From assembly GCA_963787835.1 (NCBI GenBank), contig CAWBEI010000004.1:256001-320000 (forward strand): 64,000 nucleotides of DNA, read 5' to 3'. The notes under the pieces were generated by a model that searched no databases, was not told where the DNA came from, and was given only the letters and a program-made list of their open reading frames with translations. Numbering within the stretch: the first letter of the stretch is position 1; each line of letters starts with the position of its first letter. The position numbers and the translations under genes are program-made. Origin of the DNA: Ignavibacteriota bacterium. Its GTDB lineage: Bacteria; Bacteroidota; Ignavibacteria; Palsa-1295. Below are positions 43,987-57,303 of this stretch, in pieces.

Positions 43987-44214
43987 TTACCGTTCCCGAA
44001 AGGAAGCCATGTATTTGGGGAGATCATAGATGGAATCCTCTTCGGCATACCCTTTCATAAAGGCTTCGTACTCTCCTCGGCGGACTTCACTATCGTCTTC
44101 GTGAACAGGGGGCAGAATGATCACCTTCACCTTTTCGCCCGTATGAAACGGCAGGTGATCGAGATGAAGCTCGCCCTCTCGGCGAATGATGGTTTCGGTA
44201 CTGAATGTCTGCAT
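43987..44214 (-). CDS. Small antitoxin-like protein (AbrB/DUF104-like), no partner toxin
   Basis: TII..EGELHLDHLPF.TGEKVKVIIL...EEDSIYD pattern; ATG 44214. Confidence 0.55.
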   Translation of the reverse strand: MQTFSTETIIRREGELHLDHLPFHTGEKVKVIILPPVHEDDSEVRRGEYEAFMKGYAEEDSIYDLPKYMASFRER

Positions 44215-44260
44215 GATTTTACTAACAAGAAACGCCGGATGCCGTTCCATAACGAGAACC

Positions 44261-44947
44261 TTACGTCAGCCGCCGCAGTCCCAGCCGGTGCATGGTTCCC
44301 TGCTTGGCGTCGTGGCGGCGGAAGAGAAAGGTGAGTACCACGCCGGTAAAAAATCCCCCGATGTGGGCCATGTACGCGATGCCGCCTCCGGTAGTGCCGG
44401 CATTTTCATACTGCGACGTCCAGCCGGAGAGGAGTTGTGTAACGATCCACAATCCCAGCACGAACTCCGCCTGCATATTGACGATGAATGGAAAAAAGAT
44501 GAGCACGCGAACCCGGTTGTGCGGGAACAGAATCAGATATGCTGCCAGCACACCCGCAATAGCTCCGGAAGCGCCGAGGTTCGGTATGTGGGAATCCGGC
44601 ATGGCATACGTTTGCGCCAGCATCGCAGCAATGCCGCATGTGAAATAAAAGATGATGTATTTAAATTTCCCGAGATTATCCTCGACATTATCGCCAAAGA
44701 CGTATAGATACAGCATGTTCCCAAAGATATGCGCCACGCCGCCATGCAGGAACATCGAGGTGATGACCGTATAAAATGGCTGACGTCCCGCGATGAAATC
44801 CGCCGGGATCAGTGAATACTGATGGACGAAATCATTCCCGCCGGACAGTTCCAGCAGATACACCAGAACATTGATGGCGATGAGAGCCGTCGTTACGACG
44901 GGATAGGAAACTCGCTGGCTGTTGTCGTCACCAAGAGGGAGCAGCAT
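44261..44947 (-). CDS. Rhomboid family intramembrane serine protease
   Basis: TSMFLHGG..HIFGNM, GASGAI (Ser), AHIGGF (His). Confidence 0.95.
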   Translation of the reverse strand: MLLPLGDDNSQRVSYPVVTTALIAINVLVYLLELSGGNDFVHQYSLIPADFIAGRQPFYTVITSMFLHGGVAHIFGNMLYLYVFGDNVEDNLGKFKYIIFYFTCGIAAMLAQTYAMPDSHIPNLGASGAIAGVLAAYLILFPHNRVRVLIFFPFIVNMQAEFVLGLWIVTQLLSGWTSQYENAGTTGGGIAYMAHIGGFFTGVVLTFLFRRHDAKQGTMHRLGLRRLT

Positions 44948-44996
44948 AAACTACGATTTACAGGATTTTGCGGATGTTCAGGATGGATTTGGGGGA

Positions 44997-45911
44997 TTAG
45001 TGAGCAGTGGAATCGATGGAGATGAGCGTGAGGGTGCGTTTATCAAACGAATTATCGAGATTTCTGCCAGCGATACGGCGACCGGTTGAAGTTCGTGAAA
45101 TTATGAGTCCGTCTGAGGAACGAATATCCTGCAACTCGTCAGACTGACCCTTGGAGATAAGTTCTCCATCACCGACTTGATAATTCGTTATTTCCGTTTC
45201 AAGTTTGTATTGTCCCGCCTTGCGGTCAGCGGCATCTTGATGAATAGAATAATCGTTGTGGTATGAATTGTAATTTTGGCCAGCAGGTTTCTGGTTCGGA
45301 GAGCTTGCAGTGTGGGTTAAGTAAAAAGTATGAGGATGGGAGATCTTAGTTGAACTATCCTGCCATTTCACTCCTGCTCGAACCTCTGATTTGATTGGTC
45401 TCGTGCTAAGTAATTGCGACATCCCAGAAATGATTGCTACGCTGTCCGGTGGTGCTTTAGCCAAATTTTTGGGATCCTTCCACCCTATTTGGTTCAAACT
45501 GTCCTGTGGAGAGCGGTGCAATATCTCGCCGCTCAGGTACCTTCCATACCGATCCACTTTTACTCGATATAGGGGAATTTGCAAAGTAAGCCCACCCTGA
45601 GTTACTCCTTCGCCACCATCTCCGCCTTTAAAATCGTGCGTTTCTTCATTTTGGATGACAAGCGTTGCGTTGTCAAGTGAATCAACGTTCTCGACCGTAA
45701 TATGAATATCCTCTATCCGATCCCAATTGTGTTCCATTAGACCGGGCGGATTATCCGGATTGCGGAATTCATCGATCTTCTTGTAATGCAAAACTTCCCC
45801 CGCCTTAAAATGATACGCAAGATCAACCGGTGCCGGTGAAGTGGCCTGCCCGAACGCCACCGAAGCAGGGAATCCCAGTACCACGATTATCAGGATGTTG
45901 CGGATGTTCAT
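44997..45911 (-). CDS. Secreted paralog-array protein, unit 4 (DUF6263-like), intact
   Basis: Signal peptide ...AFG-Q, PVDLAYHFKAG.VLHY, ITVE.VD...NATL, C-terminal KRTLTLISIDSTAH. Confidence 0.85.
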   Translation of the reverse strand: MNIRNILIIVVLGFPASVAFGQATSPAPVDLAYHFKAGEVLHYKKIDEFRNPDNPPGLMEHNWDRIEDIHITVENVDSLDNATLVIQNEETHDFKGGDGGEGVTQGGLTLQIPLYRVKVDRYGRYLSGEILHRSPQDSLNQIGWKDPKNLAKAPPDSVAIISGMSQLLSTRPIKSEVRAGVKWQDSSTKISHPHTFYLTHTASSPNQKPAGQNYNSYHNDYSIHQDAADRKAGQYKLETEITNYQVGDGELISKGQSDELQDIRSSDGLIISRTSTGRRIAGRNLDNSFDKRTLTLISIDSTAH

Positions 45912-45926
45912 GATGGATTTTTTGGA

Positions 45927-46848
45927 TTAATGAGCGGTGGAATCGATGGAGATGAGCGTGAGGGTGCGTTTCAAATATAACTTACCAACATCACCCATTC
46001 CTCCAATTGGCCGATCCATTTGAGTACGGGCAGGTCGTGAGTCCGTCAGATGAGCGAATGTGTTCATCTTCATCGTTAAGTCCTTTAGAAAGAAGCATCC
46101 CATCTGACACTTGGTAGTGGGTACATTGTGTCGCCAGATCAAATGTTCCTGCATTTCGATCTTTCCCATTTTGCTTAACGACATAGTCATAACGGTCTGC
46201 ATTGTAGCTTGGTTTGGGAGCGGGTTGATCCTCTGCGGGGCTTGCGGAATGATCCAACGCGTAGTGTATTGTATGGGAATGTTGACTGGAACTATCTATC
46301 CATTTCGCACCTATCTGCACTCCATTTCTTGCGGGCCTCGGACAAAGCACTTCTTGAAAATCGAGTTTGATCCTTGAGCTGTCTGGCATTGCCCATCCAT
46401 TATAGTTTGGATCTTTCATCTGTTCGTGAAAGAGACTATCCTAAGGCGAGCGTCGCAACATCTCACCTCTAAGATATTTTCCAAAACGATTAATCGTTAC
46501 GCGATAAAGAGGAATGTCCTGAGCAAGTCCGCCCTGGGTTACACCAGTAGGATCATCTCCACCCTTGAAATCGTACGATTCCGTGTTCTGTATAACAAGA
46601 GTTGCGTCGCCGATAGAATCAACTTTTTCAACAGAAATGTCAACATTCTCCTTTACGTCAAAATTTTCTTCCTGATAACCTCCTGGATTATCCGGGTTCC
46701 GCATCTCATCCAGGCGCTGATAATGCAAAACTTCCCCCGCCTTAAAATGATATGCAAGATCAACCGGCGCCGGTGAAGTGGACTGCCCGAACGCCAGTGA
46801 GGCGGGGAATACCAGAACCACGATTATCAGGATGATGCGGATTTTCAT
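45927..46848 (-). pseudogene. Paralog-array unit 3, interrupted by an in-frame TAG (46441-46443) and a +1 frameshift (~46029)
   Basis: RRSP-TAG-DSLFHEQMKDP aligns with HRSPQDSL of the paralogs; an extra C in TGCCCGT shifts the last ~33 codons. Confidence 0.75.
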
Positions 46849-46863
46849 GATGGATTTTTTGGA

Positions 46864-47793
46864 TTAATGAGCGGTGGAATCAATGGAGATCAGCGTAAGG
46901 GTGCGTTTATCAGAGATATTTTCACGATCTTTGTTGATTTTAATTCCGGGCACCGCTTTTTCCAATTGAGTACGCTTTAAGGTAATTCCATCGCTTGACC
47001 GAATTTCCTGATCTTCATCTGTAGTAAACTGCGATAATAATTGCCCTTGCGAAACTTGATAGTTCATCGTTTTCGTAACAAAGTGGTATTTGCCAGCAGT
47101 GCGATCTTCCGCATCCTGAGCGGTCTTATAATCATAATGATGAGAAAAGTAACTTGGAAGTGGTGGAGGCTCCTCTTTCGCAGGTGCGGCCGTGTGATTG
47201 AAATAAACGACATGGTTATGTGAAATCTGGGCCACACTATCCTGCCAGGTTGTACCAATTTGAACTCCTGTTCGAGCAGGTCTCGTCGAAAAGGCCTCGC
47301 CTATAAAAAGATTTATTATGGAACTATCAGTACGCGGTGTAATATTCCATCGTGGGTCTTTCATGTGCTCATGTTCTAAGCTATCTTGCGATGAGTAACG
47401 CAATATTTTCCCGCTAAGATATTTTCCATACCGATCTACGGTGACTCGGTAGAGAGGAATATCTTGTGCGATAATACCCACAGCTTGTTGGAATCCGTTA
47501 TCACCATTTTTGAAATCGTAAGATTCCTCATTCTGGATAACGAGGGTTGCATCCCCAACTGAATCTACTTTTTCAACCGTGATATGAATGTCATCTTTTG
47601 TATCATAATTCCCTTCCATGTAGCCGGGTGGATTATCCGGATTCCGACATTCATCCAGCCGTTGATAATGCAACACGGTTCCCGCCTTGAAATGATACGC
47701 AAGGTCAACCGGCGCCGGTGAAGTGGACTGCCCGAACGCAAGTGAAGCAGGGAACACCAGAACCACGATTATCAGGATGTTGCGGATTTTCAT
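46864..47793 (-). CDS. Secreted paralog-array protein, unit 2, intact
   Basis: Same conserved N- and C-terminal blocks as unit 4, divergent core. Confidence 0.87.
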   Translation of the reverse strand: MKIRNILIIVVLVFPASLAFGQSTSPAPVDLAYHFKAGTVLHYQRLDECRNPDNPPGYMEGNYDTKDDIHITVEKVDSVGDATLVIQNEESYDFKNGDNGFQQAVGIIAQDIPLYRVTVDRYGKYLSGKILRYSSQDSLEHEHMKDPRWNITPRTDSSIINLFIGEAFSTRPARTGVQIGTTWQDSVAQISHNHVVYFNHTAAPAKEEPPPLPSYFSHHYDYKTAQDAEDRTAGKYHFVTKTMNYQVSQGQLLSQFTTDEDQEIRSSDGITLKRTQLEKAVPGIKINKDRENISDKRTLTLISIDSTAH

Positions 47794-47808
47794 GATGGAT
47801 TTCTGGGA

Positions 47809-48726
47809 TTAATTAGCAGTGGAATCGATGGAGATGAGCGTGAGGGTGCGTTTCAAGAAGGAATTATCGAGATTTCTGCCAGCGATACGGCGACCGGTTG
47901 AAGTTCGTGAAATTATGAGTCCGTCTGAAGATCGAACGTCTTGCACTTCGTCATCTGTGCCTTTCGAAATAAGTTCTCCTTCAACGACTTGATAATTTGT
48001 TGTTTCCGTTTCAAGTTTGTATTGTCCCGCCTTGCGGTCAGCTGCATCTTGCTCGATAGTGTAATCGTTGTGATATGCTTTATAATTCGGGCCGGCAGGT
48101 TTCTGGTTCGGTGAGCTCGCAGTGTGGTTAAAATAAAATGTAGTTGGATGGGTTATCTTGGTTGAACTATCCTGCCATTTCACTCCTGCACGAACCTCTC
48201 CTTTGGTTGGTCTCGTGCTAAGTAATTGCGTCATTCAGGAGATGATCGATACGCTGTCCGGTGGCGCCTTGGCCAAATTTTTGGGATCCTTATACCCTAT
48301 TTGCCACATGCTGTCCTGTGGAGAGCGGTGCAATATCTCGCCGCTCAGGTACTTTCCATATTTATCCACTTTTACTCGATACAGCGGAATTTCCAAAGTA
48401 AGCCCTCCCTGAGTTACTCCCTCGCCACCATCTCCGCCTTTAAAATCGTGCGTTTCTTCATTATGGATGACAAGCGTTGCATTGTCGAGTGAATCGACGT
48501 TCTCGACGGTAATATGAATATCTTCTATCCGATCCCAATTGTGTTCCATAAGACCGGGCGAATTATCCGGATTGCGGAATTCATCGATCTTCTTGTAATG
48601 CAGCACGGTTCCCGCCTTGAAATGATACGCAAGGTCAACCGGCGCCGGTGAAGTATTCTGTGCAAACACAGTGGAAAATGAAGCAAGCACGATCACACAA
48701 CAAATGCCGATTATTTTCATAGCCAC
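47809..48726 (-). pseudogene. Paralog-array unit 1, interrupted by an in-frame TGA (48235-48237)
   Basis: DSVSIIS-TGA-MTQLLSTRP aligns in frame with DSVAIISGMSQLLSTRP of unit 4. Confidence 0.78.
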
Positions 48727-48760
48727 AAATTCTTAATTCTCAATTCTTAATTGATAATTG
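48727..48760. repeat. AT-rich heptamer-type repeat between tRNA-Val and the array
   Basis: AAATTCTTAATTCTCAATTCTTAATTGATAATTG. Confidence 0.65.
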
Positions 48761-48766
48761 AAACAG

Positions 48767-48841
48767 TGGGCATTACAGGGTTCGAACCTGTGACCTTTCG
48801 CGTGTGAGGCGAATGCTCTGGACCAGCTGAGCTAAATGCCC
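48767..48841 (-). tRNA. tRNA-Val(CAC)
   Basis: Reverse complement GGGCATTTAGCTCAGCTGG...TTCGC-CTCACAC-GCGAA...GGTTCGAACCC...AATGCCCA. Confidence 0.95.
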
Positions 48842-48941
48842 GGACGTGCCGTATAGCTCGGCTCCTAACTTCTATGCGTTTGGGGTGGTTCCGAACCGAG
48901 CAACGAACTGTAATAGAAATAATTGGTTTATAGAGTCTATA

Positions 48942-49220
48942 ATGATAGGGAACATGCTTGCTATCGTAGAAGCACATCCACTGCAGGATTTCAAGCTTGC
49001 TCTTACCTTCAATAATGGCAAGAGCGGGACGGTGGATCTTGCCAAAATTTCCCGAACCGGCGTGTTCGAAGCCTGGAACGACCCATCCTTTTTTCGGAAA
49101 GTGTTCGTTCATCCCGAATTCAGAACCGTCACCTGGCCCGGCGATCTGGATCTCGATCCTTATGTGCTCTATGCCCAAATGACAGGAAGTTCCATTGAGG
49201 AAGTGTTGGCGAGTGTCTAA
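48942..49220 (+). CDS. DUF2442 domain protein (putative antitoxin)
   Basis: IVEAHPL..FKL.LTFNNG..G.VDL...GVF...DP.FF.KV.V...TVTWP.DLDLDP..LY; start 48942 or 48954. Confidence 0.88.
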   Translation: MIGNMLAIVEAHPLQDFKLALTFNNGKSGTVDLAKISRTGVFEAWNDPSFFRKVFVHPEFRTVTWPGDLDLDPYVLYAQMTGSSIEEVLASV

Positions 49221-49222
49221 CG

Positions 49223-49483
49223 ATGCCTGAAATTTCTCGATTCTTTGGCATCGTCGTTCTCCTAAATTACAACGATCATACTCCTCCGCATTTTCATGCG
49301 CTGTCCGGCGATGAAGAAATTTTGGTTGGCATTAACGATCTTCAAATAATTCGTGGCAGCATGTCCGCGCGCAATACACGTCTTGTGATGAAGTGGGCTG
49401 CGCTCCATAAGGAGGAATTAGTGCATGCCTGGAATGAGGCACAAGCGCATCATGTGCCCGGTCGAATTGAGCCGTTGCATTGA
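49223..49483 (+). CDS. DUF4160 domain protein (putative toxin)
   Basis: MPEISRFFGIV...NDH.PPHFHA...WA.LH.EEL...W...IEPL. Confidence 0.92.
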   Translation: MPEISRFFGIVVLLNYNDHTPPHFHALSGDEEILVGINDLQIIRGSMSARNTRLVMKWAALHKEELVHAWNEAQAHHVPGRIEPLH

Positions 49484-50643: not shown

Positions 50644-50889
50644 ACATTTTTCGCCATTTGTCTGTATTCTTCAACATTTATATAATTTATTGTTCGTTTT
50701 CTTGCTTCTGGGATTTTTCTGTTGTATCTTTGTAGAAGTTTAGTGGATTCAGGTAAGCCCGATGGATCATTTTGTCTATTTGTCTATGCCCGAATCCGGC
50801 ATTTAAGTTTAGTTAGCGGAGGGGTTTTATTAGTTTGCTTCTATCAGAATCCCCTTGGTGTACTTTTTAACGCTTCACATTCTATTACT

Positions 50890-57303
<6,414 letters not shown>

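Follow-up and report, generated by a model that had tools for sequence, protein, structure and literature searches.

A probably recombining tandem paralog cluster behind tRNA-Val in an Ignavibacteriota bacterium, with downstream start codons likely derived from a dispersed repeat

Introduction

Tandem clusters of paralogous genes that vary by recombination have been described before. In the Staphylococcus aureus lpl cluster, as presented by Tsuru and Kobayashi 2008 (PMC2568036), a conserved block within the genes is the recombination site, trees are incongruent, and deletions, duplications and substitutions occur; the unit runs from the 3′ end of a gene across the spacer into the 5′ end of its neighbour. 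Garrett et al. 2022 (PMC9484751) describe gain and loss driven by recombination in the esaG and tipC T7SS immunity clusters, and for tipC they report two blocks of homology, one close to the 5′ end and one close to the 3′ end, which enclose a variable central part and lie behind a signal peptide. The csa1 'gene accordion' is a further likeness, in which tandem envelope-protein genes are reported to expand and contract by recombination within clonal cultures (Belikova et al. 2020, PMC7360770). Since recombining paralog arrays are thus already known, the architecture alone is ordinary. Signal peptides derived from repeats have a precedent in Yersinia RU-2/YPAL within YPO1552, which the published accounts give as a prediction on one hypothetical gene (Delihas 2007, PMC2759123; review, PMC2229807); in our own literature search on signal peptides, REP elements and exaptation, no bacterial case was among the matches listed.

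Here we compare these systems with an array of four genes in an Ignavibacteriota bacterium. An earlier note on this DNA had named it the best candidate for an undescribed system, a claim that is not supported, as the architecture matches that of the published lpl, esaG and tipC clusters.

Results

Layout of the locus and state of the units

The array lies in a 64-kb window (the whole stretch of DNA analysed, from genome G000), and all features given here are on the minus strand. Its fixed upstream anchor is tRNA-Val(CAC) (48766..48841), which heads the locus in 13 relatives also, and its downstream anchor is a rhomboid protease gene (44261..44947; PF01694 E=4.9e-35). Four head-to-tail units of about 935 bp (927, 945, 937 and 930 nt) follow the tRNA directly, with a 15-nt spacer between each stop and the next ATG, as the earlier note had described. 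Its starts for units 2, 3 and 4 (ATGs at 47793, 46848 and 45911) are likewise correct; the ATG of unit 1 is at 48720, and 48726, where the note had placed it, is an upstream GTG. Units 2 (U2, 46864..47793) and 4 (U4, 44997..45911) are intact and encode 309 and 304 aa. Scans for sigma-70 promoters (9 versus 8.8) and terminators (7 versus 5.3) gave matches at chance level, and no inverted repeat of at least 20 nt was found at the junctions. The gap between the tRNA and unit 1 (48728..48765) holds an AT-rich dispersed repeat of a 7-mer type with dozens of BLAST matches across G000. It is a second family, unrelated to the junction repeat described below, and a similar stretch is also present in genomes G006 and G014 and in locus L041.

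Two units are broken in the assembly, lesions that had previously been overlooked. Unit 1 (U1, 47809..48720) carries an in-frame TGA at 48235-48237, which is also present in a read-derived contig of run X1 (48122-48340, 0 differences). Unit 3 (U3, 45927..46848) is interrupted by a TAG (46441-46443) and, between ~46035 and 45990, by a frameshift; at the TAG a contig of run X2 (depth 2.1) has a sense codon instead, and the frameshift region is without read coverage. The four low-depth soil runs, all from one study and covering only part of the array, showed no joints, and no read in the runs examined outright shows a joint or a copy-number variant. One contig (X3) mixes U1 and U4, which have 39 identical nt at that point, and may be a chimera produced by the assembly.

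Constant ends and divergent cores

The junctions J1 to J3 are 91-93% identical over 173-188 nt, so that copies differ by 7-9%. The strong central divergence noted before among units 2, 3 and the 1/4 pair is borne out in 60-column windows, where core identity falls to 33-45% in some pairs and U1 and U4 range from 73 to 100% (217/246 core residues of unit 4 are identical to unit 1). Over the five unit pairs excluding U1/U4, synonymous third positions were identical at 75/96 sites in the N-flank (codons 23-43), 48/63 in the C-flank and 257/572 in the core. Synonymous divergence is thus not uniform along the units; uniformity was one of the two patterns that, by the earlier note, would have refuted its reading, and neither it nor the other, a fixed four-gene arrangement, is seen. 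The earlier description of junctions as near-identical even at synonymous sites is right in that flanks exceed core; it is overstated in degree, flank dS being 0.1-1.0. Taken pair by pair, the contrast is non-significant in 2/5 N-flank tests (U2/U4 p=0.14, U1/U3 p=0.07) and 1/4 C-flank tests (U2/U4 p=0.40), or 3/9 over both flanks. The longest exact stretch common to a unit pair is 26-68 nt.

At codon 43 the units change from one phylogenetic grouping to another. Within columns 70-128 all 7/7 informative sites support the split 12|34, and in the core 93/112 sites support 14|23, a switch reproduced in 0/100000 permutations. In the N-flank U1 therefore groups with U2 (7/7 informative sites); its block from the mature N-terminus to Tyr43 (48596..48654) matches unit 2 (47666-47724) at 58/59 nt. 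Ahead of this block unit 1 has a signal peptide distinct from those of the other units (45-49% identity over the first 60 columns), which the earlier note had missed.

Between genomes the flanks lose their advantage: units 1-4 and the single gene of G002 share 35/66 synonymous sites in the flank and 207/409 in the core (about 50%). As the flank is no better conserved than the core, we infer homogenisation within the locus rather than a conserved DNA motif. The two-unit pair of G008 is identical at 20/21 synonymous sites in the flank versus 41/94 in the core (Fisher p=1.3e-5), and has homogenised the same 71 nt independently of G000. Tyr43 is the last codon of the homogenised tract in both genomes. 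The G008 pair has no repeat, and its C-flanks are not alike (4/9 aa); shuffling therefore does not require the repeat. The N-flank of G000 contains a palindrome, which was considered as a recombinase site and rejected, because it is not preserved in G008 and L041.

U1 and U4 are the only pair with measurable core divergence, the remaining core pairs being saturated. With dN 0.07, dS 0.36 and dN/dS about 0.19, this pair is under purifying selection and is not hypervariable.

A dispersed repeat at the junctions

About 55 nt of each junction belong to a genome-wide intergenic repeat, and its contribution to junction and signal peptide, not seen by the earlier note, is the most unusual feature of the locus. 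In G000 the repeat has 40 matches at E<0.02, 34/40 of them intergenic (best E=1 in a reversed-genome control); as a pattern it has 29 matches versus 0 in the control, and the pattern occurs in 7/15 genomes of the genus. A profile built from four copies outside the array recovers J1 (47757..47810, E=1.5e-10), J2 (46812..46866, E=5.5e-9), J3 (45875..45930, E=7.8e-8) and a terminal copy after unit 4 (44948..44997, E=3.9e-10). J1 comprises stop and spacer, ATG and first codons of unit 2, and J2 and J3 the ATG and N-terminus of units 3 and 4. Units 2-4 thereby take from the repeat their ATG and the ~13 codons with which their predicted signal peptide begins, signal peptides being judged by eye from a basic start, a hydrophobic stretch and small residues before Gln.

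The terminal copy has CTG where the coding copies have ATG, and an in-frame TAA. The same non-coding form stands after the single gene of G002 (E=9e-13) and at the site of a deletion scar in genome G006 (E=8e-16), and three diagnostic codons separate the three coding copies from every one of the three non-coding copies at the locus. One copy outside the array reads in frame ..IRKILKIVV, resembling the start of proteins P0006 and P0007. Inverted partners lie within 450 nt of 10/40 repeat matches, and the remnant of a Y1 transposase sits some 220 nt away from one copy. No link between the repeat and GxxExxY genes emerged: although G000 has 3 PF13366 genes, a simple motif test found a GxxExxY frame within 600 nt of 0/40 matches, and a literature search on such a link gave nothing related.

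Relatives and core lineages

At 13 readable loci of the same genus there were 0 units in 10, 1 in 2 and 2 in 1, against four in G000, so that unit number varies between species and no fixed four-gene order is seen. In six unit-free relatives the rhomboid gene directly follows the tRNA. In G006 a unit was lost between a short signal-peptide microhomology and the last codons, not from junction to junction. The protein family was found in one genus only (3/34 family genomes). Searches for further relatives in sets of genome, metagenome and viral contigs that may lack near relatives gave 7, 47 and 86 pattern matches, with 0 confirmed, and carriers were found neither among plasmids in PLSDB nor among viruses in IMG/VR.

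P0002/P0015 and P0006/8/10 were compared as protein, and members of each set probably share a contig. The core tree groups U1/U4 with P0010 (support 100/100), U2 with P0002 (98/97) and G002 with P0015 (100/100). A single clade is rejected by the AU test both for the four G000 cores (p=3e-101) and for P0006/8/10 (p=1.6e-4). The cores are old, and different genomes have core types in common. Unit 1 combines an ancestral-type signal peptide, 90% and 86% like those of P0015 and L041, with a core of another type, that of U4 and P0010. L041 is one truncated locus, obtained when metagenome contigs were scanned with a DNA pattern; its partial core matches U1 at 52/91 and G002 at 66/91 positions.

Predicted fold

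An AlphaFold2 model of unit 2 (pLDDT 77.6) predicts a lipovitellin/LolA-like β-sheet, with fold matches to 1lsh_A (Z 13.8, rmsd 4.0, 205 aligned) and to LolA-like proteins (Z 8-10); Foldseek against the PDB gave weak matches only (best E 1.7e-4, TM 0.33). From this fold, at 11% identity, the protein is predicted to be a periplasmic or surface half-barrel β-sheet, with a polar groove in which a ligand or partner might be bound. It may resemble DUF6263 (PF19777), and resembles the lipovitellin/ApoB/MTP N-sheet and LolA-like folds, in its signal peptide, its length of about 300 aa and its predicted antiparallel half-barrel. The DUF6263-like label that the protein had been given is nevertheless not supported, as no close family member has a Pfam match: U2 and U4 have none at E<=1 and fall below the DUF6263 gathering cut-off of 26.7 bits, Pfam and NCBIfam offer no family for the units, and 9 further proteins have no DUF6263 match. 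Among distant hits 1/29 gives E=0.039 (14 bits) against DUF6263, the true DUF6263 protein of the genome scores 1.7 bits against the unit family profile, and an Atlas cluster with 17% DUF6263 scores 0.90. A literature search on DUF6263 found nothing.

Discussion

We interpret the locus as a tandem array of genes for one family of small, likely exported proteins. Ordinary RecA-type recombination (G000 has a RecA gene) has likely kept the short ends alike, while old middles were exchanged between units, acquired or deleted. For the downstream copies, a non-coding repeat would be the source of the start codon and of the front part of the predicted signal peptide. We put the probability of this reading at about three in four. 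The ancestral state was a single gene after tRNA-Val followed by the non-coding repeat, as in G002, the G006 scar and the terminal copy. A tandem duplication may then have fused the end of the repeat to the middle of the signal-peptide region, with C-to-A making the ATG and Lys and stop codons becoming Asn and Ile, to give a basic and then hydrophobic N-terminus. In the sequences, flanks track the locus and cores track older lineages; the most constrained 20 codons past the cleavage site and the last 13 codons, together with the repeat-containing spacer, would act as crossover and conversion blocks. The array would expand and contract (0-4 copies) and may now be partly decaying.

The cores could instead have been imported mainly by allelic exchange between conserved flanks from other strains or species, and not shuffled within the chromosome. 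Core types common to several genomes, the rejection of per-locus clades and the retained signal peptide at position 1 before a differing core all suit such import, and the lpl account models both routes (PMC2568036). However, deletion and conversion sorting old paralog lineages would yield the same pattern, no carrier was found in the viral and plasmid databases and the family was found in one genus only, and we regard import as the main source as rather unlikely. Less likely again is that the units form an orphan repertoire for immunity or antigenic variation and are under diversifying selection; the earlier note had likened the locus to antigen or immunity cassette arrays. In tipC immunity genes two blocks are arranged alike (PMC9484751), a chain from a Bacteroides T6SS cargo complex is the top fold match among bacterial proteins (9jg8_A, Z 11.2), and old, distinct core types do coexist. 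Against this are the low dN/dS of U1/U4, the absence of a toxin gene beside any locus read (the neighbours here being tRNA-Val and rhomboid) and of any Pfam or NCBIfam immunity family, the lack of a PF04717 (VgrG family) match in G000, which is 97.9% complete, and a locus without the gene in 10/13 relatives. Conserved flanks, divergent cores, shuffling by homologous recombination and a copy number that varies among relatives remain from the earlier proposal of a recombination-driven variation locus; its antigen or immunity cassettes are not supported. A T7SS/T6SS immunity array was likewise rejected, as no linked cognate toxin or secretion-system genes are at the locus.

A dedicated site-specific system, integron-like or with a recombinase acting in trans, might cut or insert units at the N-flank or repeat. 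The common tract end at Tyr43 in G000 and G008, the position behind a tRNA and the inverted partners of some repeat copies point that way, but flanks about 50% identical at synonymous sites between genomes, junction copies that are not identical, a G008 pair without the repeat and G006 loss endpoints away from junctions make it very improbable. No recombinase match lies nearby, in line with the earlier note: tyrosine and serine recombinase matches in G000 (3 of them PF00589) are all outside the window, no integron integrase is beside the array, and an integron cassette array was rejected on that ground. Even more doubtful is that a fifth unit was lost and left its decayed start as the terminal copy, the likeness to the dispersed repeat being secondary. 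The copy does follow unit 4 in exact register, with 74/81 nt matching J1, yet each of its three diagnostic codons is that of the non-coding form seen genome-wide, this form also follows the G002 gene and marks the G006 scar, and no remainder of a signal peptide comes after it; this reading is largely refuted.

The array is thus a recombining paralog cluster of the lpl/esaG/tipC type, a known kind, with a well-polarised exaptation twist: same-strand tandem paralogs share short blocks of high nucleotide identity, histories either side of a block are incongruent, and copy number and order vary among relatives. In vls/pilS-type silent-cassette loci, truncated silent cassettes feed one expression site and the variable regions are under diversifying selection. 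That type was rejected, as none of the units here lacks a start codon or a predicted signal peptide and the intact units are 2 and 4, not the first. The lpl genes, as described, have a conserved centre and variable ends (PMC2568036), whereas in this array it is the core that varies between conserved ends, in an unrelated protein family from a soil organism with a repeat-derived junction. The described esaG and tipC clusters flank a cognate toxin (PMC9484751), none of which is seen at this array, and in contrast to the clonal change reported for csa1 (PMC7360770), change here is seen between species, plus one ambiguous contig. The repeat, like RU-2, is a multicopy intergenic element. In YPO1552, however, a MITE-like unit is described within one gene (PMC2759123), whereas here the repeat-derived start would have arisen via tandem duplication, includes the ATG itself, is found in three local and four foreign proteins, and has an ancestral non-coding copy in the same locus.

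A bolder reading, which we hold only tentatively and at somewhat below even odds, is that a functioning signal peptide arose de novo out of a repeat that coded for nothing, in a case that is polarised and dated. Duplication would have set the repeat before a gene copy lacking its head, start codon and hydrophobic core would have come from two or three substitutions, the repeat would also have become part of the crossover block, and the array would shuffle functionally distinct, anciently diverged binding proteins in living populations. What is uncommon is that ancestral non-coding and derived coding states of the signal peptide stand side by side, confirmed in outgroups, and that the mutational path from an intergenic repeat to a predicted export signal is short. 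In two lineages a block of 60-70 nt suffices to homogenise paralogs with cores 40-50% identical, within a small unannotated family of probable envelope proteins that is confined to one genus in the genomes searched.

Layout of the array

Four head-to-tail genes (units U1–U4) lie on the minus strand between tRNA-Val(CAC) (48766–48841) and a rhomboid protease gene (PF01694 match), with ATG-to-ATG sizes of 927, 945, 937 and 930 nt, and the tandem array proposed in an earlier note on this DNA is real. Searches by tblastn and profile found no further copies elsewhere in the 3.57-Mb genome (G000). U2 (309 aa) and U4 (304 aa) are intact, U1 is broken by an in-frame TGA, and U3 carries a TAG and a frameshift. 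A short-read contig from one run (X1) of a soil study agrees with the window across 48122–48340, with 0 differences, and so backs the U1 stop, while a single contig from a second run (X2; depth 2.1) has a sense codon in place of the U3 TAG; the U3 frameshift lies outside the stretch spanned by short-read contigs. U1 is therefore probably a true pseudogene, and the U3 lesions may be strain-variable or assembly errors.

An AT-rich 7-mer repeat, the second dispersed repeat of this locus, occupies 48728–48765 between the tRNA and U1, and has dozens of genome copies, frequently as inverted pairs. Upstream of the tRNA is a DUF2442/DUF4160 gene pair (48846–49483), whose place is taken by a long palindromic element in L041, a metagenome contig with a truncated locus; the slots on either side of the tRNA are thus both variable. 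A 2193-aa ORF (50722–57303) has long collagen-like Gly-X-Y runs and then short Ser/Thr/Ala-rich repeats, and its synteny with the tRNA side is maintained in the relatives G002 and G009 and in L041. Just downstream of the rhomboid gene, an 87-aa ORF (43987–44250) has no significant Pfam match and no tblastn match in the relatives' loci searched.

Conserved ends and divergent cores

Synonymous identity was scored at third positions of codons sharing the amino acid and first two bases, in the five unit pairs excluding U1/U4. It reached 75/96 in the N-flank (codons 23–43) and 48/63 in the C-flank versus 257/572 in the core; the pairs behind these counts are non-independent, and three of nine single-pair flank tests were not significant. 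The constant flanks around divergent cores described in the earlier note are supported. The signal peptides of U2–U4 are likewise alike at synonymous sites (42/52). U1/U4 is the one pair whose cores fall short of dS saturation (dS 0.36, dN 0.07), and flank dS is 0.1–1.0. Between G000 and G002 the N-flank (35/66) is no better than the core (207/409), so flank DNA is not maintained by cross-species constraint. Within the array, all seven informative sites in columns 70–128 join U1 with U2, versus 93/112 in the core that join U1 with U4, a run of sites reproduced in 0/100000 permutations.

The family profile matched 3 of the 34 other genomes of the taxonomic family, all within the same genus. The tRNA-Val locus was readable in 13 of the 14 other genus genomes (in G007 it falls at a contig end); ten of the 13 have no unit, the rhomboid gene immediately following the tRNA in six of those, and G002 and G010 have one unit each and G008 two. 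In G008, a distant relative (rhomboid 59% identical), the two genes have 71 nt in common with one mismatch, covering the same stretch of the mature N-terminus as in G000 and stopping at the same Tyr codon, and cores identical at 99/245 positions; synonymous identity is 20/21 in the shared block versus 41/94 in the core (p=1.3e-5). In G002, ~11 kb of other genes (L039, G002:C1:1748980–1759900) separate unit and rhomboid; among them are oxidoreductase-like ORFs and a beta-propeller fragment that lacks its head and begins directly after the junction-type repeat described below. G010 also holds two distant family members in tandem (L040:3388–5151, G010:C11), 41.5% identical with no common DNA stretch >10 nt, a tandem pair without homogenisation; it has no tblastn match in G000.

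Database searches returned 17 homologs, which probably add two arrays, as judged solely from source contigs of equal size. One further assembly, of a very close relative, contains a 77-aa frameshifted fragment (P0027) near-identical to the U4 start. Among 20 proteins, N-flank identity was 0.94 for pairs from one locus (11 pairs) and 0.74 for pairs from different loci (179 pairs), compared with 0.52 and 0.47 for the core. In the core tree genes pair across genomes, and AU tests reject trees in which the four G000 cores form one clade (p=3e-101) or the homologs P0006, P0008 and P0010 do (p=1.6e-4); tree and tests cover the set without the partial L041, without P0013 and P0017, which are fragments, and without sequences that duplicate G002, G010 or U2. 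The U1 signal peptide is 90% like that of the homolog P0015 and 86% like that of the first L041 gene, and the U1 core is of a different type: the first position retained its leader and changed its body. A contig from a third run (X3), attached to the rhomboid side, has U1 letters at 5/5 diagnostic sites and then U4 letters at 6/6. This is no more than a hint of array rearrangement and may be an assembly chimera, since the switch falls inside a 39-nt identical stretch.

A dispersed repeat at the junctions

In each junction, some 55 nt between the stop codon and around codon 13 of the next gene belong to a dispersed repeat. A profile trained on four copies outside the array found 40 places in G000 at E<0.02 (these four and four array copies included), compared with a best E of 1 in the reversed genome; 34 lie outside ORFs of at least 120 aa, and the other six, which each overlap such an ORF, include the three starts within the array itself. 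A pattern search gave 29 matches versus 0 in the control, and the pattern is present in 7/15 genus genomes. In a single case (L043, G000:C5:291890–292369), the remnant of a Y1 (IS200/RAYT-type) transposase lies ~220 nt away from a copy.

In the copy after U4, CTG stands in place of ATG, and the copy also carries a Lys codon and a TAA in frame. This non-coding form also follows the single gene of G002 (E=9e-13) and a deletion scar after tRNA-Val in G006 (E=8e-16; L050, G006:C9), in which the unit gene's first ~10 codons are fused to its last four across short microhomology. Three codons set the three coding copies apart from these three non-coding ones: the coding copies have ATG, Asn/Ile replacing Lys, and Ile replacing Lys/stop. 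One non-array copy reads ..IRKILKIVV in frame, matching the starts of P0006 and P0007; a repeat-type start is also found in P0002, P0008 and P0010, and the leaders of first or single genes are unrelated to it. We infer that duplication joined the repeat end to the back half of the older signal peptide; a handful of substitutions would then have turned the repeat into a start and hydrophobic region. The resulting leader, judged by eye, is a predicted signal peptide.

Protein family and predicted fold

No Pfam or NCBIfam family matches the units, and among 1.84 billion representatives searched there were 37 matches (10 at E<=1e-30). The DUF6263-like label suggested earlier was not borne out: one of 29 distant matches scanned touches DUF6263 (E=0.039), and the genome's true DUF6263 protein (L042, G000:C5:224039–224644), with a lipoprotein-like leader, scores 1.7 bits against the unit-family profile. 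An AlphaFold2 model (pLDDT 77.6, pTM 0.73) has an antiparallel sheet and two helices, and best matches the lipovitellin N-terminal sheet (Z 13.8, rmsd 4.0, 205 aligned, 11% identity), followed by ApoB, MTP, a Bacteroides T6SS cargo chain (Z 11.2) and LolA-like proteins. Since charged residues abound in its long strands, and E48, R50, E90, D93 and R265 are among the columns with little or no variation, the model tentatively favours a polar groove for binding rather than a lipid cavity. A type IX secretion sorting domain is encoded by a neighbouring gene, and the nearest Atlas clusters are mostly Bacteroidota where the phylum is known; together these suggest that the host is related to the Bacteroidota.

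Mechanism and relation to known arrays

The simplest reading is a self-reinforcing recombination loop at the conserved ends, in a genome that encodes RecA. Constraint on the protein would keep the first 20 codons of its mature part similar, recombination would be channelled to these codons and the junction, and the cores would drift out of its reach. Cores imported from other lineages may contribute, an effect inseparable here from shuffling within the locus. A site-specific system acting on the units is unlikely: as the earlier note held, no recombinase is seen in the window, and the genome's matches to tyrosine recombinases (three) and resolvases (two) all lie outside it. On the tests run, the proposed repertoire of antigen or immunity cassettes is also unlikely.

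The lpl genes of S. aureus recombine at a conserved block with a unit spanning two genes (Tsuru and Kobayashi, PMC2568036), tipC has 5' and 3' homology blocks enclosing a variable middle (Garrett et al., PMC9484751), and such tandem arrays are shown expanding and contracting (Belikova et al., PMC7360770). The architecture described here is real and of a known kind, and it is the polarised transition from repeat to predicted signal peptide that carries most interest.
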